Shown: in pieces, positions 36,803-56,039 of the stretch
Layout of the letters: every line of letters starts with the position of its first letter
Position numbering within the stretch: the first letter of the stretch is position 1
Origin: Bacteroidaceae bacterium
GTDB taxonomy: Bacteria; Bacillota; Clostridia; TANB77; CAG-508
Length of the DNA: 64,000 nt
Direction of reading: 5' to 3'
NCBI GenBank assembly: GCA_963621875.1
Contig: CAVFFR010000001.1
Span: 15,940-79,939 of the forward strand
Translations under genes and position numbers: made by a program
The notes under the pieces: generated by a model
Seen by the model: the letters and a program-made list of their open reading frames with translations, nothing else
What the model was told of the DNA's origin: nothing
The model's database searches: none

Positions 36803-38293
36803 ATGAAAAAGATAAAAACTGTTCGTATGAAACTATTTACAACACTAAGCTTAATAACAATATCAATTTTGTTATTACTAATTATGATAAATAGTCTATT
36901 TCTTAAAACATTTTACACTGTAACAAAAATAGAAAGTGTAAAAAGTGAATATTATAAAATAAATCAGTTATATAACCAACAAGATGAACTAGCATTGCAA
37001 AAAATAAAAAACGATGCTGTATCAAACAATTTCAATATATTAATAGCTAATGAAGAATACTTCTTAGTGTTTTCTACAGATGAAAACTTTGAAAATACAG
37101 TAAAACAATATATAAACAATTCTGTTCCTCTTATGAATCAAATAAAAGAAAAAACAAATATATTATTTAACAAAGATAATATATTAATTAGAAAAATTAT
37201 TATAAATGGAAATAACAGTATACTATTAGTAGGAAAGCTAGACAATAATTATAATGTATATATAGAGATGCCAATATCCATTATAGACGAAAGTGTAAGA
37301 ATTTCTAATAATGTATTATTTATAATTGGAATTATAATAATATTTATAGGTGGAATTGTAGCATTATATGTTTCTAAAAAGTTTGCAACTCCTATATCTG
37401 AGTTAAACAACATAGCAAATAAAATGTCGAAATTAGACTTTAGCCAAAAGTACAAAGGAACTGGTACTGACGATGAAATGGACGAGTTAGGACATAGCAT
37501 AAACATAATGTCAGATAAGCTAGAAAAAACAATAAAGCAATTAAGAAGAAGTAATTCTGAATTAGAAAGAGATATAGAAGAAAAGTCAAAAATAGATGAA
37601 ATGAGAAAACAGTTTATATCAGATGTATCTCACGAACTAAAAACACCAATAGCACTAATACAAGGATATGCAGAAGGACTTATAGAAAATGTCAATGTAG
37701 ATGATGAATCTAGAAAATACTATGCAGAAGTAATATTAGATGAATCAAATAAAATGGATAAGCTTGTAAAACAATTGCTAGAATTAATGAAACTTGAGGA
37801 TGGAAAACGAGAATTTGATAATAGCAAATTTAACATTTGTGAACTAATTCAAGAAGTTATAAGAAAATGCAATGTAATGTTAGAAGAACACAAAATAAAA
37901 GAAATCAAATTTGATACAAATAAAAAAGTGTATGTATATGCAGATGAATTCTATATAGAACAAGTATTTACTAATTATTTTACAAATGCAATTAAGCATA
38001 CAAAAGATATAAATGGAGAAAAATACATAGAGATAAAAATAGAAGAAAAAGAAGATAAAGCAAGAATATCAGTATTTAACACAGGAGAAATAATTCCAGA
38101 AGAAAAAATTGATAAAATATGGGGAAGGTTTTACAAAGCAGATGAATCTAGAAATAGATCCGATGGGGGAAGCGGAATAGGACTTGCTCTAGTAAAAGCA
38201 ATTATGAACAACATAGATTCTGACTATGGTGTTATTAATGAAGAAATGGGAGTAAGATTCTATTTTGATATAGCTAAAGATAAAGAAAAATAA
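36803..38293 (+). CDS. Two-component sensor histidine kinase.
   Basis: Two TM segments, HAMP, H-box SHELKTP and HATPase_c N/G boxes (NAIKHT, GSGIGL). 496 aa. Confidence 0.8.
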   Translation: MKKIKTVRMKLFTTLSLITISILLLLIMINSLFLKTFYTVTKIESVKSEYYKINQLYNQQDELALQKIKNDAVSNNFNILIANEEYFLVFSTDENFENTVKQYINNSVPLMNQIKEKTNILFNKDNILIRKIIINGNNSILLVGKLDNNYNVYIEMPISIIDESVRISNNVLFIIGIIIIFIGGIVALYVSKKFATPISELNNIANKMSKLDFSQKYKGTGTDDEMDELGHSINIMSDKLEKTIKQLRRSNSELERDIEEKSKIDEMRKQFISDVSHELKTPIALIQGYAEGLIENVNVDDESRKYYAEVILDESNKMDKLVKQLLELMKLEDGKREFDNSKFNICELIQEVIRKCNVMLEEHKIKEIKFDTNKKVYVYADEFYIEQVFTNYFTNAIKHTKDINGEKYIEIKIEEKEDKARISVFNTGEIIPEEKIDKIWGRFYKADESRNRSDGGSGIGLALVKAIMNNIDSDYGVINEEMGVRFYFDIAKDKEK

Positions 38294-38327: not shown

Positions 38328-40130
38328 ATGAATAATCAAGACGATCTAAGAAAAACTGTAAGAAACAGTACTGGAAAGAAAAAGAAAAAAAACAATAAAC
38401 CAATAATAATATTTGCGATAATACTAATAATTGCGATTGTTGTTATAATAAACAATGCTAAAAAGAACGAAAAAGTATCAGTACAAGAAATAACAAATTA
38501 TAATTATTTTGTAATAACAACAAATGAAAGTAAATCAGGAGTCATAAACAAAGAAGGAGAAATAGTAATAAATCCAGAATATGATTCTATACAAATACCA
38601 AACCCAGAAAAGCCTGTATTTATATGCTTATATGACTATAATAGCGAAACAAGAGAATATTCTTCAAAAGTACTAAATGAAAAATCAGAAGAAATATTAA
38701 AAAAATATGATAAAGTACAAGCAATACCAAACAACAACACATCAGTAAATAATGCTTATCAGACTGCAGTACTAAAATATAAAAATGATGGCAAATATGG
38801 TCTAATAAAAATTAATGGTAAAAAATTAACTTCTGCAATATATGACGAAATAGAAACTCTAGAATACAAAGACGGAGTTTTAAAAGTAAAACAGGATGAT
38901 AAATACGGAATAATTGACCTCAATGGCAAAGAAATTATAAAAGCAGAATATAATTCTATTGTTGCGGATGGCTACTATAACCAAGAAACAAAATATGAAA
39001 AAGCAGGATACATTGTAAATGTAAAAACAGAAGAAGGATATAGATATGGTTATATAAATAACAATGGAAAACAAACACTAGACACAACATATACCAATTT
39101 AAAAAGAGCTACCAATATGGGAGATTCAGCAATTTATATGATTAATTATAAAAACGGAAAAGCGGGTATCCTAAAGGATTCTCAAACAATTATAAAAAAT
39201 GATTATGAAGACATAGAAATTGATGCAGAAAATCAAATAGCTTCAGTACAAAAAAATGGAAAAAAAGGTGTATATGATTTATTAGGTAATATGATTTTGC
39301 CAATACAATATGACGATATAATTTTTGCAGGAAAATGTATTAACGCGTCTAAAGATGGTAAGGTACTTGTATTTGATTTGGCAGGAGTAATACAAAGTGA
39401 AAGCCCATATAGAAGCATAACAAAAGTTGCTAATGGAAAATATAGCATTACTATAAATAGAGATAACCAATATGGAGTAATAGACAATAATAAAGTAGAG
39501 ATAATCGAAAATAAATATTCATACATTGAATATGCATTTGATAATTACTTTGTTGTATCTAAAAATGGAATGTCTGGACTACTAAATTCAGAGTCGAAAG
39601 AGATAATACAAATTAACAAAAATGTGGTGCAAAATATAAAAGGAACTCAAATAGTACAAACAATAGACTCAAAAGCAAAAATAACAGAATTATATAACAA
39701 AAATATGCAAAAAGTAGCAACACAATCAGATGCTAGAATTTATATAAAAGACAACTATATAGAATTAGTATCAAAAGATAATATAGAATATTTTGATTTT
39801 GACGGAAACAAAAAAGATGCAAAAGACTTATTTGATAATAAAATATATGCAAAAGAACAAAATGGAAAATGGGGATATGTAGATAAAGATGGAAATACAG
39901 TTGTAGACTTTAAATATGATATGGCAACAAATTTAAATAAATATGGTTATGGAGCAATAAGATTAAATGACAAATGGGGAGTAATAGACTCGAATGGAAG
40001 TATAATAAAAGAACCAATTTATGAGCTTTCAGATTATGAGCCAAATTTCATAGGAGAATATTATGAGGTAAATAACATATATCAAATGTCATATTTTTCA
40101 AATGAAATAAAGATAGAACAAGGAGAGTAG
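38328..40130 (+). CDS. Membrane-anchored WG-repeat (KWG-type) protein.
   Basis: N-terminal K-rich segment and TM, then 12 or more ~30-aa repeats of the form DGKYGLIxxNGKxxIxxxYDxI. Confidence 0.6.
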   Translation: MNNQDDLRKTVRNSTGKKKKKNNKPIIIFAIILIIAIVVIINNAKKNEKVSVQEITNYNYFVITTNESKSGVINKEGEIVINPEYDSIQIPNPEKPVFICLYDYNSETREYSSKVLNEKSEEILKKYDKVQAIPNNNTSVNNAYQTAVLKYKNDGKYGLIKINGKKLTSAIYDEIETLEYKDGVLKVKQDDKYGIIDLNGKEIIKAEYNSIVADGYYNQETKYEKAGYIVNVKTEEGYRYGYINNNGKQTLDTTYTNLKRATNMGDSAIYMINYKNGKAGILKDSQTIIKNDYEDIEIDAENQIASVQKNGKKGVYDLLGNMILPIQYDDIIFAGKCINASKDGKVLVFDLAGVIQSESPYRSITKVANGKYSITINRDNQYGVIDNNKVEIIENKYSYIEYAFDNYFVVSKNGMSGLLNSESKEIIQINKNVVQNIKGTQIVQTIDSKAKITELYNKNMQKVATQSDARIYIKDNYIELVSKDNIEYFDFDGNKKDAKDLFDNKIYAKEQNGKWGYVDKDGNTVVDFKYDMATNLNKYGYGAIRLNDKWGVIDSNGSIIKEPIYELSDYEPNFIGEYYEVNNIYQMSYFSNEIKIEQGE

Positions 40131-43461: not shown

Positions 43462-44277
43462 GTGAAAGAAAAGATTACAGTTTTAATCTCAGATGATAAT
43501 GTGGAATTTGCAAACACATTATCAAGTTACTTAGAAAAAGATGAGGAAATAATAATAATCGGTAGAGCGAAAGATGGAGAAGAAGCTCTAGAAATGATTA
43601 CTGCAATGAGACCAGATATCGTTTTATTAGATGTTATTATGCCACATCTAGATGGACTAGGAGTATTAGAAAGACTAAATACAATGAATCTAGACCGTCG
43701 TCCAATTTGTATAATGCTTTCAGCAGTGGGACAGGACAAAATAACCCAAAAAGCAATATCATTAGGAGCACAATATTATGTTGTAAAACCTTTTGATATA
43801 GAAGTACTAATACAAAGAATAAAAGAAATAAAATATTATCTACCAAGAGAAAGAGCAACATACATTATAAGAGAGCCAAAGACACAATATATAGATATAC
43901 CAAAACAAGAAATGAAAAATGAGGATAGCCTAGAAGCATTAGTAACTAATGTTATTCATGAAGTAGGTGTGCCTGCACACATTAAAGGTTATCAATATTT
44001 AAGAGAAGCTATAATGTTGGTAGTAAATGATATAGATATTATTAATCAAATAACAAAACAATTATATCCAGAAATTGCAGAAAAATATCGTACAACACCA
44101 AGTCGTGTAGAACGTGCAATTCGTCACGCAATAGAAGTTGCGTGGGAAAGAGGAGAAGCTGCTGCAGTAGAAAACATATTTGGTTATACTGTCTCTGCTA
44201 GCAAAGGCAAACCAACAAATAGCGAATTTATCGCAATGATAGCTGACAAACTAAGATTAGAAATAAAAACAGCATAA
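43462..44277 (+). CDS. spo0A: Sporulation master regulator Spo0A.
   Basis: GTG start after RBS ggggga. Receiver domain with an Asp pocket. C-terminal Spo0A_C DNA-binding domain ([12 protein letters not shown]...[16 protein letters not shown]). Confidence 0.9.
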
Positions 44278-44746: not shown

Positions 44747-45001
44747 TTATACATGATGACTATATTTTAATTTTGTCGCTTGACCTCCTCTAATATGTCT
44801 TTCTGCTTTGTTTTCGTCTAAGATAATTCTGACCTCGGAAGCGAGAGCAGGATTTATTTTTAATAATCGTTCACTAACATCCTTGTGTACTGTAGATTTA
44901 GAAATTCCGTATTTTTTAGCTGCACCTCTAACCGTATCTTTTGAATCTATAATATATTGAGCTAATTTTACAGCTCGTTCTTCAATTGAAACTCCAATCA
45001 T
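44747..45001 (-). CDS. spoIIID: Stage III sporulation transcription regulator SpoIIID.
   Basis: 84 aa. HTH region GISKSTVHKDVSERL and C-terminal ENKAERHIRGGQATKLKY. Start chosen to match SpoIIID length. ORF-track start 45046. Confidence 0.85.
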   Translation of the reverse strand: MIGVSIEERAVKLAQYIIDSKDTVRGAAKKYGISKSTVHKDVSERLLKINPALASEVRIILDENKAERHIRGGQATKLKYSHHV

Positions 45002-45125
45002 AAAGAAAACCCCCATATGAATACATTTGTTTAATTGTATTCGCAATAAGGTTGTATTATGAATTTATTTCTACGAACAATAACATTCTACAAAATACGA
45101 CATATAATGTAGTAGGTGATATAAG

Positions 45126-45935
45126 ATGAAACTTAGAAAAGGAGATATTGTAGGAAGAAAATCTTATAACAAAGATATTGCATTTGTTATAAATAATATA
45201 ATAAAAAATAATGATGGAGAATTTGCAGTACTAAAAGGACTTATACTAAGAATTGAGGCAGATGCTCCAATTGGGGATTTGGAATTATTAGATAATAAGC
45301 AAGTAATTCATATAGTCAGTAAATTTAATAACGAATTAGAAAAAAGGAAAAAGAAAGAACAAAAAACTGTAAGTCATAATTTAAAAAGAAATAGAGAAAG
45401 ATACGGAAGAATACTACACTTGGATGGAGATAAAAAATATAGCGAAAAATCAGAAAGAGTATATAAAAGTATGGGACTAGATGTAGTTGTAAAAAACATT
45501 CCGGAAAGTAAACAACCACAAATGATATACGCATTATTAAGCAAATATAATCCAGATATTTTAATTGTTACAGGACATGATGGAATGATAAAGAAAGGAC
45601 ATAATTATAACGACATTTATAACTACAGAAATTCAAGGTACTTTATAGAAACAGTAAAAAGAGCCAGAAGATGGGAGTTTGGAGAAAATAAACTAGCAAT
45701 ATTCGCAGGTGCTTGTCAAAGTTATTATGAAGCAATAATGAAAGCAGGAGCAAATTTTGCATCATCACCAGCAAGAATATTAATAGATTTTAAGGATCCA
45801 CTAGTGGTTGCAGAAAAAATTGCAAAAACTGATTCAAACAAATTTATAACAATAAAAGATATAGAAGATGACTTAAGAGATGGGGAAAAAGGAATAAATG
45901 GAAGTGGCACTATGGGGAAGAAAAAAAATCCATAA
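45126..45935 (+). CDS. yabG: Sporulation-specific (spore-coat) protease YabG.
   Basis: YabG family (peptidase U57). Conserved VTGHDG...AGACQS blocks. 269 aa. RBS aggtga. Confidence 0.75.
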   Translation: MKLRKGDIVGRKSYNKDIAFVINNIIKNNDGEFAVLKGLILRIEADAPIGDLELLDNKQVIHIVSKFNNELEKRKKKEQKTVSHNLKRNRERYGRILHLDGDKKYSEKSERVYKSMGLDVVVKNIPESKQPQMIYALLSKYNPDILIVTGHDGMIKKGHNYNDIYNYRNSRYFIETVKRARRWEFGENKLAIFAGACQSYYEAIMKAGANFASSPARILIDFKDPLVVAEKIAKTDSNKFITIKDIEDDLRDGEKGINGSGTMGKKKNP

Positions 45936-45998
45936 AAATAATGGACAATTATAACTAGTTATGATAAACTTAATATAAATTAGGAGGATATTGCACAA

Positions 45999-46121
45999 AT
46001 GAATTTTAATGATTTAGAATCAAGAGAATTGCTAGAGATATACAATAAAATTGAAGTGTTTATAGACTTCTTGAATAAAGAAGCAAAAAACGCTGAAAAA
46101 TTAGGAGAAGCAAATGAATAA
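45999..46121 (+). CDS. 40-aa helical micro-protein, translationally coupled to the next gene (ATGA overlap).
   Basis: Strong RBS taggagga. Protein MNFNDLESRELLEIYNKIEVFIDFLNKEAKNAEKLGEANE. Its stop overlaps the start at 46114. Confidence 0.3.
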   Translation: MNFNDLESRELLEIYNKIEVFIDFLNKEAKNAEKLGEANE

Positions 46122-47682
46122 AATATTAGAAAAGATTGAAACAGATAAAGAAATTTTATCTACAATGCCAACAAATAACAAAAAGAATATTGCCCACTAT
46201 ATTGCCACAGTAAAAAAATTGAGCGAAGAATATGAAAAAAGTAAGCAAGAAATTTTTAATGAGTTGGATAAAAGGTTTAAAAAAATAATATCTGTAAACG
46301 AGAATAAAGAACTAAAAACACAAAAATCAGAAATATCAGAAATAGAAAATATGCTTGAAATAATAAATCCAATAAAAACCTCATACGAAAGGATGGGGTT
46401 AGATAAGAGAGTTTATAAATTAGGCAGATTTTATAAAGAAAATTTAGAGAGCATAAATGATGAAATAGCATCTTGTATAAACAAATTTTATTCAGTAGGG
46501 ATAGATATAACTGCAAATGATTTTAATTACAGTATGTATGTAAATGAATATATGCAGATATTTTTTGATGAGATGAAAAAAGAAGGTGTAAATTCTGATA
46601 TTGTAAAAAACAAATTTGAAGAAATTTATTGGAAATGTCCAGACCTAATAATCCATATAGAACTAAACATTAGATATATTTATATAGAAAATCAAAAACA
46701 AATAGATAAATATTACGAAAAAAGAAAAACAGAACTATTAAATAATATAAATGCAAAACCAGAACAAATAGAGGAAAAATATTTATTCTTAAAACAAAAA
46801 AATAAAGAACAAGAAGAAACTGATAAATACATTTTATTACAAAAATTCTTAAACGATGAACTAGATATAAATAACTATGAAGAAGATAAAATAAAAACAG
46901 AGTATTTGAAACTAATACCAGAGAATGTTATAAAAAATGCTTCTAAAAAACAAATAGAAGAAATAACTCAAAATTCAATAAAGTTTTTAAATAGTTTACA
47001 AGAATACAAAGAGTATTTAAAATTTCAATTTATAGTTGAAAATATAAAAAATAAATATAAAGATAAGGAACAATATAAAAATCTTTATAATGCTACTCAA
47101 AAAGAAATAAATGCTAAAGAAAAAAAGATAAAAAGCTTAAATGGCAAAATGAGTAGTAAAGGTCTATTTGGTAAAAAAGACAAAAAAGATAAACAGGCAG
47201 TGGAATATAATTCTATAATATTAGAGCTAAAAGAGCTATACAAAAAATTAGATGATGCAAAAATATATTCAAAAATAATAGAACAATTAAAAGACGACTC
47301 TACAATCTATGATGCATTATATTTTGCAAGCCAATTTAATAATTTTTTGGTTGATTGTATAATAGAAAACAATAAAAATATTACACAAGAAGAAATAGAG
47401 CAATTTGTGCAAGACTTAAAAATTTTCTTAGGAAGTCCATATAATATAATTACAAAAAATATTACAATTTTAGAAGAAAAGGATATTCCAATAATAATCT
47501 CAGACAGATATAAATTATTAAATTTTATGATTAATAAAGAAGATATAACAGAATCTAATTTAGACAACTTAATTGAAATATTACAAAAAATAAAAGAATA
47601 TGATAATTTACAAAAAAGTGGATTAAATCTGGAAGAAATAAAGTTTATATGTGATTTTAAGAAGATGCTAAACAAGAAATAA
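46114..47682 (+). CDS. K/E/N/I-rich coiled-coil protein of unknown function. No signal peptide.
   Basis: 522 aa of low complexity with heptad-like periodicity. First long gene of the operon that continues into the 2777-aa protein. Confidence 0.4.
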   Translation: MNKILEKIETDKEILSTMPTNNKKNIAHYIATVKKLSEEYEKSKQEIFNELDKRFKKIISVNENKELKTQKSEISEIENMLEIINPIKTSYERMGLDKRVYKLGRFYKENLESINDEIASCINKFYSVGIDITANDFNYSMYVNEYMQIFFDEMKKEGVNSDIVKNKFEEIYWKCPDLIIHIELNIRYIYIENQKQIDKYYEKRKTELLNNINAKPEQIEEKYLFLKQKNKEQEETDKYILLQKFLNDELDINNYEEDKIKTEYLKLIPENVIKNASKKQIEEITQNSIKFLNSLQEYKEYLKFQFIVENIKNKYKDKEQYKNLYNATQKEINAKEKKIKSLNGKMSSKGLFGKKDKKDKQAVEYNSIILELKELYKKLDDAKIYSKIIEQLKDDSTIYDALYFASQFNNFLVDCIIENNKNITQEEIEQFVQDLKIFLGSPYNIITKNITILEEKDIPIIISDRYKLLNFMINKEDITESNLDNLIEILQKIKEYDNLQKSGLNLEEIKFICDFKKMLNKK

Positions 47683-47705: not shown

Positions 47706-50700
47706 ATGAGAAAAACTAGACAGAAAAAGCGAGCTATAATAAGCAAAAAAAGAGTATTTATTTTAATATGCTTAATAATGTTGACAATTTTCGAAATAAT
47801 AGCTTTTAGAGATTCAAGAGCAAATAAAGTAATAGAAATATCAGTCAACATTATTGATAGTGCTTCTCGTTTAGAAGATAAGCAAATGACATTGAATGCT
47901 GTAAATTCTAACGGAAAGGACTATTATTTAGCGTTGCCAGAATATGTCGACAATAAGAGAATAGAAGGGTATATAATAGAAGAAACTCAGTATGAGGAAA
48001 TAATAGAAGATAATAATGAAGATCAAGTTAGCGAAACAGACAACAATGTTATAACAGCTGAGGAAAATATAATAGAAGACTCTATAAACAATAAAGCAAC
48101 TAATGCAAATGAAGAAATAAATACAATTGACGAAGATAAAGCAAATACAGAAGAAACTATACAAGAAGAAAAAAAAGTAATAAAAACAAAAACAGAAAAA
48201 AGCATACAACCTAATGAAAGCATTATTCTAACAAAAGATGAAATTCAAAACAAAACAATTACAATAAAAGCTGTATATGATAGTAAAGAAAAAGATGGCA
48301 CTATTTTATATAATCAAGAAATTAATGCAGAGATAGTAGAAAATCAAGAAATATCAACTAAACACAATATAAAAATTGATGGTTATATGCCGATAGATGC
48401 AACTGCTAAAGCAACAATAGTTACAAGAGATGACATACAAGATAAAATTGATGATATGCTAACAGATAAGGTTTCGTTAAGAGTAGCATATGATATAAAA
48501 ATTATATATAACGAAGCAGAATTTGAGCCAGAAGAATTTGATACAGATGTTAAAGTAACCATAGTTGGAATGGAAGAAATAAATACTAGAAAGCAAAAAT
48601 ACAAAGTAATACACATAGATTCAGAAAATACTGTTGAAGAAATAAAGACAGTGGAATCTTTAGAAGACACAGTTTCTTTTACAGCAAAAGAATTTTCGAC
48701 TTATGCAGTATTACTGGAGAGTGATATAAGTACAACATCATTATCTGCTAATATGGATTCCGCAAATGTATGGGAAGGAAATACAGCAACAGGATTTAGA
48801 TTCGGAGAAGGAACAGCAAGTTACCCATATCTAATCTCTAGCGGAGAAGAACTTTCATATTTGGCAACTCAAGTAAATAGTGGAACTTCATATGAAGGAC
48901 AATATTTCTCTTTAATTAGAGATATAAACTTAAATGATAAAGAATGGACTCCAATAGGTAATTACAATAATTCATTTAAAGGAACTTTTAATGGAGAAGG
49001 ACATACCATAGCAAATGCAACAATTACTCTGCCAAGTGATATACCAACATCAGTATCTTCATATGGACTTTTTGGAAGTATAGGAGGAGGAAATAGCAAA
49101 ACAACAATAAAGAATTTGCAAATAGAAAATATTACTATTTCAATAACTGCAACTGGAACAACAGGAAACAATACTACTGCAAAAGGCTATAACATTGGAA
49201 TTGTAACAGGAACTATGTTTAATAACTCCGCTGTAAAAAATGTTATAATTAATAGTGGAAGTATAGAAGATACAAGTGCAATAATATTAAGAACAAATGA
49301 TACACAGATATTTGTAGGAGGAATAGCAGGACTTGCAGTTAATAGTACAAGCTCAACAGAAGATCCAGGAGAAGGAAAAAGATATGAAATAGAAAACTGT
49401 TATTCAAATGTAAATGTAGATTTAGCAATACGACCTTATTCTATTTTGTTTATCGGCTCACAATATGCAACAGCTGGTCAGTATGCTGCAGGTGGAATAA
49501 TTGGTGGAATAAAAAACCAAGCTGTTTGGCCACAAAATTGTTTATATAAAGGCAATCTAAATGCAGCTAACGCATTCACTGGCCCTATATTTGCATATGT
49601 AAGAGGAAATAGTACTATAGGAAATACTAATAATTTTAGAACAATTTGGTACGGATATGATGCGGGAACAATAGCAGATGCAATAAATAGTTATTTTACA
49701 TCATATAGTACAAATTCAAAATCTTTTACAACAAGTGTAACAAGCCAAAGTTCAGATCAGTATGTTAGTAGCAGTTATATGGGATATGTGCAGGGTGTAA
49801 ATAAAGGAATATATACAAGCAATACTAACTCAATGTTAAGCAATTTTAATAACTATGTATCACAAAACGCAGAAGAAGACTATTTAAACTGGTATTTTGA
49901 CGATGCAACAGACTCATATTACTTTACGCCAGTATTAACAGCAGAAATAATAAAGAATGTGCCAGAATATGTAGTGCAAGTCAATGATGGACTAGCTACG
50001 GGAAATTACACATATAAATGGTATATAGATGGTCAATTAGATGAAAGTGTAACAACTAATACTATGACAAAACCATCTTCGTGGGAAACAGAGTATAATG
50101 TTGAAGTTTTAGTTAGCAATGGAATTCAATATACAATGCTTAGCTTTACTATTCCACTATACGAAATACATATCTCATTTGAATATGCAAATAGTATACT
50201 TACAGGAAATCTGGAAGGAACAGGCTTACAAGATCCCAACTTTAATTTAGCCGATTATACATATCAATGGTATGAACTTGACATATCAGGAGAAGAAACA
50301 TTATTAGAAGGGAAAACGCAGAATAATATTACAGATTTAGAAAATGGTCTAGACTATAAACTAGTTGCTACAAATAATAAGTATGAATATATGTCAGTAG
50401 AAAACACATATACATCTACTACGAGAACTGTTATTTACTGTAGTTACAGTAGTGGTAGTGATTACAATGATGGATATACTCCACAGACACCAGTAAAGAC
50501 TTTATCAACTGCCTATGGAAAATTTTCTACATCAACAACGAGAGATGAAAATGTAATAGTGCTAATGGGGACCTATTCTGATTCAAGTAGTTGGTGGGGA
50601 AGTAGTAGATACTTAGACAGTGCCACTTCTACAACATATAATCGAAATGTTACAATAACAGGAAAATATGGAGGGCAAGATTATAGCGGAGAACTATATT

Positions 50701-56039: not shown

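Follow-up and report, generated by a model that had tools for sequence, protein, structure and literature searches.

A candidate fibrillar adhesin of uncultured gut Clostridia and its conserved gene cluster with SipW-like signal peptidases

What is the function of a gut bacterial protein of 2777 amino acids (aa) that matches no named family and is encoded between sporulation genes on one side and a series of SipW-like signal peptidase genes on the other? The gene lies in a 64-kb stretch of contig CAVFFR010000001.1 (positions 15,940 to 79,939, forward strand); this whole stretch, with a guanine-plus-cytosine (GC) content of 28.3%, is called the window here, and positions given without another contig are window positions. 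An earlier note, made from the letters of the window, had placed an open reading frame (ORF) of 2777 aa at 47706-56039, and we found it exactly there, with the N-terminal sequence as quoted. We consider it probable that this giant protein is an exported, fibrillar, adhesin-like surface protein of an uncultured, spore-forming gut Clostridia bacterium of 28% GC.

By this explanation, the protein would be exported via a Sec-type signal peptide (residues 1-39) and cut within S-R-A-N, after the A, by a co-encoded peptidase of the SipW type (that is, endoplasmic reticulum (ER)- or archaeal-type). The mature chain would then present, in order, an N-terminal domain with an acidic linker, a GLUG-type domain, two small modules, a beta-helix and about six beta-sandwich domains. 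GLUG domain, helix and beta-sandwich string would be displayed as a rod tens of nanometres long, which on vegetative cells may serve as an adhesin or as part of the matrix, with assembly or retention supplied by co-conserved small secreted proteins. The gene cluster would accordingly be devoted to the production and display of a surface adhesin or fibre, analogous in its logic to tapA-sipW-tasA but built from unrelated proteins.

Architecture of the giant protein and its family

The gene and the parts of its product are as follows, with residues numbered from the start codon.

47706..56039, + strand: giant protein gene, ATG start, 2777 aa
47706..47822, + strand: signal peptide, residues 1-39, with a K/R-rich n-region, an h-region of ~20 aa and a conserved A-F-x-(N/D)-S-(R/K)-A c-region
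47823..48740, + strand: N-terminal region, residues 40-345, with a strand-like conserved start NKVIEISVNIID, a variable acidic linker and then a conserved beta-rich domain
48753..49625, + strand: GLUG-type domain, residues 350-640, which holds the WTPIG...FKGTFNGEGHTI motif
49953..50405, + strand: two short modules with a (D/N)YTYxWY signature, residues ~750-900, the motif being repeated in the sequence and in the family consensus
50463..53570, + strand: right-handed beta-helix in the AlphaFold2 model, residues ~920-1955, with an estimated ~40 coils
51432..53495, + strand: 23 (V/I/F)(Y/F)GGGN repeat units, residues 1243-1930
53583..56036, + strand: C-terminal region, residues 1960-2777, about six beta-sandwich domains in a string, without an enzyme fold

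Searched at full length and in seven segments, the giant protein matched nothing in Pfam or NCBIfam at E<=10, and the whole protein matched no PDB sequence. Homology searches gave about 98 relatives of 2500-3400 aa (E between 0 and 1e-68), nearly all from metagenome assemblies, none of them named and none carrying a Pfam domain. Conservation in the family peaks at residues 1800-2350, which comprise the end of the helix and the first C-terminal domains. We conclude that the giant protein represents a wholly unannotated new family of low-GC gut Clostridia, probably of the beta-helix fibrillar adhesin type; literature searches found no description of its gene cluster. A second tier of matches (E 1e-37 to 1e-25) consists of Bacteroidota proteins of 4300-4850 aa (P0099-P0118), to which we return below.

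AlphaFold2 was run on two segments of the giant protein with an alignment of 45 homologs. The model of residues 905-1960 is nearly all beta (mean predicted local distance difference test (pLDDT) 90.8, predicted template modelling score (pTM) 0.82), with a regular two-strand pattern in each 25-aa unit, and Foldseek comparison of the helix model with the PDB gave weak matches only (E>=1), mostly to beta-helix proteins. On the strength of the model and these matches, the central third of the protein is predicted to be a right-handed beta-helix of stacked parallel-strand coils, as the earlier note had anticipated for the repeat region. We estimate that the helix, with ~1050 aa and roughly 40 coils, of which 23 bear the 25-aa YGGGN signature, extends for ~20 nm. 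The (V/F)YGGGN repeats that the note had singled out are present as 23 units, but not with the 20-aa period it gave: the period is 24-26 aa in the regular centre (residues 1410-1790) and 32-43 aa at the flanks. The repeat region is a regular solenoid, rich in Gly and Asn and poor in acidic residues, and the repeat segment matched none of the PbH1/Beta_helix models in Pfam at E<=10.

The closest genome to that of the window is a metagenome-assembled genome (MAG) labelled 'uncultured Clostridia bacterium' from a Hadza gut sample (L001), the one true relative found in a search of genome contigs. Its giant protein is 90-95% identical to the window protein over most of the length and carries 163 extra aa (~6.5 repeat units) at residue 1633. 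The site of this indel is the sole low-confidence loop of the helix model (residues 1630-1651), and the indel maps exactly onto a 75-nt DNA tandem repeat in the window (52560-52759, residues 1619-1685; 2.7 copies, 81-87% match). It therefore reflects either strain-level variation in repeat number, which between near-identical strains is typical of adhesin stalks, or repeats that collapsed in assembly.

Ahead of the helix lies the motif W-T-P-I-G-N...F-K-G-T-F-N-G-E-G-H-T-I (residues 413-436), whose presence the earlier note had recognized and which it had taken for a beta-helix cap. The motif domain is 500 aa ahead of the helix start and 830 aa ahead of the first YGGGN unit. A profile of residues 350-640 matches PDB 3n6z_A, a 'putative immunoglobulin A1 protease' (E 5.6e-12); Pfam Glug (PF07581) is matched by 5 of 11 homologous modules (best E 8e-7); and the module is 30% identical to four tandem modules in an unrelated protein, P0119. 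Together, these matches and the tandem copies identify a separate GLUG-type domain and not a cap. The window copy alone has no Pfam match, so the assignment is transitive, by way of the profile and the sister modules. An identity as an IgA1-protease-like metalloprotease was rejected, as the giant protein has no HExxH motif anywhere. The two (D/N)YTYxWY modules are positioned between this domain and the helix.

Behind the helix, the modelled C-terminus contains beta-sandwich domains only, and the start of this region is conserved more strongly than any other stretch of the protein. We considered a polymorphic toxin and rejected it because the C-terminus is this conserved beta-sandwich region. 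Neither a catalytic motif nor a known type of wall anchor is present in the giant protein, which lacks an LPXTG motif, SLH and CWB domains and a second transmembrane (TM) segment. The chain ends in ...YEYVIIK with no C-terminal hydrophobic segment, and its sole LPxT-like string is internal, at residue 1077. Surface display is accordingly an assumption of the adhesin explanation, given that no retention mechanism was found. The earlier note had also read heavy glycosylation from the number of N-x-S/T sequons. There are 60, compared with 56.0 ± 6.2 in 200 shuffled versions of the sequence, so that the number does not exceed chance and simply reflects a composition rich in N, S and T. No glycosyltransferase was seen among the family matches of the cluster.

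Signal peptide and the SipW-like peptidase cluster

The giant protein begins with MRKTRQKKRAIISKKRVFILICLIMLTIFEIIAFRDSRANK. Its sole hydrophobic segment spans residues 10-37, and K and R account for 9 of the first 17 residues. Among 88 family members, the c-region is conserved at S37 (76/88), A39 (73/88) and F34 (64/88). This S-x-A is an ordinary -3/-1 signal-peptidase site, which suggests that the segment is probably a cleavable signal peptide rather than a permanent anchor, with cleavage expected after A39. The motif is compatible with either a SipW-type peptidase or the general signal peptidase I (SPase I) and does not discriminate between them. TIGR04088, the model of SipW-cognate signals, gave no match at E<=10 to the N-terminal 60 aa of the giant protein or of three small secreted proteins of the cluster (p215, p190 and p318), in a scan whose HMMER filters may lose very short weak matches. 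The earlier note had read the signal as SipW-cognate in preference to standard, which the ordinary S-x-A site and the TIGR04088 result do not bear out; the link to SipW that it drew stands on gene adjacency, which holds in every locus examined.

The same features bear on the alternative that the N-terminus is an uncleaved signal anchor from which a stalk projects through the wall, leaving the SipW paralogs to process only the small secreted proteins. The ~20-aa h-region and the strongly basic first 17 residues would suit such an anchor, as would the lack of an anchor of any other kind; an anchor is also what the earlier note had assumed. Cleavage is favoured by the S-x-A motif, the most conserved feature right behind the h-region, and by the conservation of the K41-D51 segment behind the site, as expected for a functional mature N-terminus. 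We regard the uncleaved anchor as unlikely.

A conserved segment of 48 aa separates the signal peptide from the acidic linker. The linker is thus present (residues 88-170, net charge -17) but is neither 120 aa long nor directly behind the signal, as the earlier note had it; it spans ~80 aa and is the least conserved part of the giant family. The N-terminal region (residues 40-345) has no family match and is absent from the homologs P0078, P0079, P0085 and P0089.

The peptidase genes behind the giant gene, and a fifth known from the Hadza relative, are these.

56062..56643, + strand: sip1, SipW/archaeal-type signal peptidase I that keeps Ser, His and Asp, with N- and C-terminal TM segments
56615..57178, + strand: sip2, SipW-type paralog that keeps Ser and His; TTG start, 29-nt overlap with sip1
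58407..58940, + strand: sip3, degenerate SipW-like pseudo-peptidase with a weak TIGR02228/SipW match; catalytic Ser and His lost
59589..60107, + strand: sip4, SipW/archaeal-type signal peptidase I that keeps Ser, His and Asp
L001 28183-28791, beyond the window end: sip5, fifth SipW-like gene, product keeps Ser and His

Against a TIGR02228 cutoff of 51.85 bits, sip1 scores 99.4 and sip4 68.1 bits. None reached the 190-bit cutoff of the SipW equivalog model (NF046067), the best being sip1 with 85.4 bits, and we regard these proteins as SipW-like, not as SipW orthologs. The catalytic Ser and His are kept in four of the five paralogs (sip1, sip2, sip4 and sip5) and are absent from sip3, in an alignment with a hand-typed Bacillus subtilis SipW row. 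The sip3 gene directly precedes that of p215.

We compared the window with six further loci (L001, L003, L005, L006, L011 and L012), whose giant homologs are ~36% to 95% identical. The giant gene, a micro-ORF (orf40), a partner gene (g522) and SipW-like genes occur together in 7/7 loci, whereas the flanking genes differ, and SipW-like genes lie within a few kb of the giant gene in the window and in each of L001, L003, L005, L006, L011 and L012. One to five SipW-like genes recur per locus, as do small proteins with a single hydrophobic segment (p215, p190 and p318) and a block of p332, a TM-anchored AAA+ protein, a DUF2357 protein and a SipW-like gene. We thus recognize a conserved cluster of ~15 genes around the giant gene. 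A functional tie of the giant protein to SipW-type peptidases is supported by this arrangement and by the conserved c-region; the case for SipW-type processing is genetic. The remaining genes of the cluster within the window are listed here.

45999..46121, + strand: orf40, conserved micro-ORF of 34-44 aa, always ahead of the 5xx-aa partner gene
46114..47682, + strand: g522, cytoplasmic K/E-rich partner of 522 aa that adjoins the giant gene in all loci
57227..58210, - strand: m327, cytoplasmic, 327 aa, with a K-rich middle and no family; conserved in L001, L003 and L005 (C-terminal half)
58955..59602, + strand: p215, small secreted protein with 'TYAxFxSE' behind the hydrophobic segment, 'GKIAPG' and a C-terminal 'QYLGEEI'
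60104..60676, + strand: p190, small secreted protein with a single N-terminal hydrophobic segment, probable paralog of p215
60654..61610, + strand: p318, secreted, no family assigned, conserved in 5/6 loci
61632..62630, + strand: p332, cytoplasmic, no family assigned, always precedes the AAA+ gene
62646..64000 (cut by the window end), + strand: membrane-anchored McrB-like AAA+ protein with a Walker A motif and a TM segment at residues 48-86

The two genes ahead of the giant gene are part of the conserved set. The micro-ORF gave tblastn matches in L001, L005 and L011, is a called gene (34-44 aa) in L003, L005, L006, L011 and L012, and has the consensus ..EL.E.Y.K..EF..FL.KE.. across loci. Its neighbour g522 is 31-93% identical in 6/6 loci and ranges from 501 to 537 aa; it has no TM segment and no Pfam, NCBIfam, PADLOC or PDB match. 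The m327 gene is the sole opposite-strand gene within the cluster.

The earlier note had called the downstream genes TasA-like. Motifs of p215 recall the TasA 'TWAAFND' by eye, yet none of four tests was significant. The p215 profile found nothing relevant in the PDB; 0/35 members of the p215 family matched Peptidase_M73 (PF12389) in a Pfam scan; the profile showed no significant link to the B. subtilis TasA sequence, a query that was typed by hand and is 99% identical to P0400; and comparison with a profile of 24 TasA-family members (hhalign) gave a probability of 11.6% over the C-terminal 60 columns only. At the level of sequence, p215, p190 and p318 are thus not detectably of the TasA family. 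Relationships among them are uneven: against the p215 profile in hhalign, p190 reaches a probability of 84% (E 7e-6, 140 columns), p318 2.7% and the giant N-terminus 5%, with only the signal region aligned in the last case. The p318 protein had no match in the PDB.

The p215 family itself is large and unannotated, with 104 close homologs and 3006 representative clusters at E<=1e-3. Elsewhere, p215-like modules stand N-terminal to Laminin_G_3, BspA-LRR, ephrin-receptor-like and FGE-sulfatase-like domains, and such fusions to lectin, LRR and Cys-rich adhesive domains fit a display or stalk role for the small partners. One protein of 3424 aa with a p215-like N-terminus (P0236) was considered as a relative of the giant protein and rejected as unrelated.

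The AAA+ protein is the best-conserved product of the cluster, with 66-86% identity in 5/6 loci. Its ortholog in the Hadza relative matches PADLOC PDC-M26A (E 1.6e-33) and Escherichia coli McrB in the PDB (E 5e-4), and the protein encoded after it there matches DUF2357 (E 4e-11; the pair spans L001 25483-28159) and is followed by sip5. The AAA+ protein was the only PADLOC match. The genes of the McrB-like/DUF2357 pair are the most strongly conserved of the cluster, and the pair may be either a hitch-hiking defence module or part of the machinery.

These partners suggest another alternative, in which the giant protein is a tip or cargo subunit: its NKVIEISVNIID strand would dock by strand complementation on polymers of p215, p190 or p318, with sip3 as a chaperone and perhaps the McrB-like ATPase as a motor. 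The giant gene is co-conserved with genes for three small secreted proteins and for five SipW paralogs, and the N-terminal fusions of p215-like modules to adhesive domains would fit such a role. The loss of Ser and His in sip3 recalls Streptococcus pyogenes SipA (PMC4049620), and TasA and TapA use donor-strand complementation (PMC9674648, PMC10151520). However, no homology of p215 to TasA was detected, the N-terminal domain that would have to dock is missing from some members of the giant family, and the whole mechanism is drawn by analogy; we think it rather improbable. The wider version is a so far undescribed SipW-type-dependent surface-fibre system of monoderm bacteria, with a p215-family stalk, the giant protein as tip or cargo, the dead sip3 as chaperone and a McrB-like/DUF2357 pair that powers or regulates assembly. 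In such a system the pair may have been recruited from a restriction-type module and the giant protein may be attached via its post-cleavage N-terminal strand. We rate this version, too, as a tentative and rather doubtful proposal.

The cluster does not differ in GC content from the remainder of the window, and this uniformity led us to reject recent horizontal transfer. A search of the 64-kb window with Rfam, tRNAs and riboswitches included, found no family at the gathering threshold.

Putative promoter, sporulation neighbours and the balance of evidence

Upstream of the cluster, the window contains the following.

43462-44277: spo0A, upstream of the giant gene
44747-45046, - strand: spoIIID, recognised by eye
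45126-45935: yabG (PF05582, E 1e-88)
45942..45970, + strand: sigma-A-like promoter, TGGACA-17-TAAACT with a TG extension, in the 63-nt gap behind yabG; a consensus match only

The presence of spo0A, spoIIID and yabG upstream, which the earlier note had reported, was confirmed, but the giant gene is not directly downstream of yabG as stated there, as the 40-aa ORF at 45999-46121 and the 522-aa ORF at 46114-47682 intervene. From this neighbourhood the note had proposed a component of the spore surface (exosporium or appendage). Such a component would be produced alongside yabG in late sporulation and end up on the spore. In the window and L001 alike, the operon does follow yabG and has spoIIID and spo0A close by; no terminator was found between yabG and orf40, so read-through is possible. 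Sporulation neighbours also occur in L005 (spoIIAA-AB-sigF, spoIID and spoVS) and in L006 (yabP-yqfD).

The yabG/spoIIID/spo0A neighbourhood is, however, common only to the window and the near-identical L001, and three of six independent contexts have no sporulation neighbours: L003 (SecA, IMS), L011 (SDR, HAD, Cas9) and L012 (SRP54, deacetylase, VWA). By a rough estimate (~5% sporulation genes, ~9 flanking genes per locus), about a third of loci (~37%) would have such a neighbour by chance, so that sporulation genes in three of six contexts are unremarkable. The 63-nt spacer behind yabG holds no CATA-type -10 element, and sites of the form T(A/T)GAC(A/T)-17/18-TAnnnT were seen by eye ahead of the micro-ORF in L001, L003, L005, L006 and L011, whichever gene lies upstream. 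Assembly of coat, exosporium and Ena proteins takes place in the mother-cell cytoplasm, and these proteins have no Sec signals. The giant protein, unlike these, has a Sec signal with a conserved cleavage site. A spore-surface role is therefore very unlikely, and expression is most likely vegetative, from the cluster's own sigma-A-type promoter.

That the protein is a secreted polysaccharide-degrading enzyme or depolymerase built on a beta-helix is highly improbable, given the regular Gly/Asn-rich solenoid with its few acidic residues, the lack of any CAZy-type Pfam or NCBIfam domain at E<=10 and a coil number that differs between strains, which would be unusual for a catalytic groove.

Several points weigh against the adhesin explanation itself. 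The checks for LPXTG, SLH, CWB and a second TM segment revealed no mechanism that would retain the giant protein at the surface. Its N-terminus, with a long h-region of ~20 aa and a very basic n-region, could stay as an uncleaved anchor, and the signal does not match TIGR04088. The small partners are not demonstrably TasA-like, and a simple adhesin model offers no role for the conserved McrB-like/DUF2357 pair. Glycan-degrading enzymes, too, are commonly built on beta-helices, and the fold alone is compatible with an enzymatic groove. The promoters are consensus matches in a 28%-GC genome, where 93 were found and 94.5 expected. Finally, all organisms involved are uncultured and the support is computational.

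Further upstream in the window, the 600-aa product of a gene at 38328-40130 has one hydrophobic segment, at its N-terminus, and numerous 'GKYGLIxxNGKxII' repeats (WG-type by eye); the gene is preceded by a histidine kinase gene (36803-38293).

Comparison with known systems

The giant protein as it stands is an interesting, not a surprising, find: a new family of probable fibrillar adhesins. The protein and nearly every gene of the ~15-gene cluster fall outside Pfam and NCBIfam coverage, and annotation would name ~100 giant proteins together with a small-protein family of >3000 clusters. Should the cluster prove to build a fibre, Gram-positive gut bacteria would have a new route of adhesin display, and participation of the McrB-like module would mean that a restriction-type motor had been put to an unusual second use.

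By fold, the giant protein is like the passengers of type V adhesins (TibA, Ag43, pertactin, UpaB, Vag8, EtpA and Hap), at 8-15% sequence identity. It differs from them in lacking a beta-barrel translocator or TPS domain, in its monoderm host, in the 25-aa YGGGN repeat and in its SipW-type context. The earlier note had likened its core to that of the chlamydial Pmp proteins (TIGR01376, PF02415), which also have a short Gly-rich repeat predicted to form a beta-helix. The likeness goes no further: the giant protein has 0 GGA[ILV] and 5 FxxN motifs, matches neither TIGR01376 nor any Pfam model in hidden Markov model (HMM) searches at E<=10 and has no autotransporter barrel, so it is not a Pmp.

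The giant protein can be likened by fold to region IV of the ice-binding adhesin MpAFP/MpIBP from Marinomonas primoryensis (PDB 3p4g). The helix of MpAFP, however, binds Ca2+ and leaves the cell by type I secretion, whereas the giant protein has few Asp or Glu in its repeats and an N-terminal Sec signal. Lactobacillus reuteri SRRP (5nxk) and Streptococcus pneumoniae PfbA (4mr0, 3zpp) are much shorter and are anchored by sortase through LPXTG, which the giant protein does not have. With the GLUG proteins and 3n6z it shares homology over residues 350-640, without an M26 or any other peptidase domain.

The Bacteroidota giants P0099-P0118 have a homologous helix (27% identity over ~1000 aa, E 7e-52, plus the helix end at residues 1894-1975), which indicates that this type of helix is common to different gut phyla. 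They belong to another phylum and differ in signal peptide and operon: there are no SipW genes, their N- and C-terminal regions are unrelated to those of the giant protein, and they are encoded in DUF3575 fimbria-like operons that start with NusG-like and DUF3575 genes. The homologous YGGGN-type helix of the Bacteroidota giants (contigs L008 and L009) has no Pfam model either.

In the matrix-fibre operons tapA-sipW-tasA of B. subtilis and sipW-bsaABC of Clostridium perfringens, a dedicated ER-type peptidase is encoded beside its secreted structural substrates (PMC9674648, PMC10151520, PMC7395162). The cluster described here is alike in that peptidase genes stand beside genes for secreted proteins. 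Its small proteins, however, are not PF12389/TasA, it has five peptidase paralogs instead of one, and the giant beta-helix and the McrB-like ATPase have no counterpart in those operons. In S. pyogenes, the signal-peptidase-like protein SipA/LepA is essential for pilus polymerisation (PMC4049620). By analogy, sip3 may be comparable, as it too is a peptidase homolog without catalytic residues and is encoded directly ahead of a small secreted protein; SipA works with sortase-assembled pili, whereas the sip cluster has no sortase.

Giant beta-helix adhesins are well known from type V and type I secretion or with sortase anchoring, and none of these features is present here. The unusual part is the genetic tie of such a protein to multiple SipW-type peptidases, in abundant uncultured Clostridia of the human gut.

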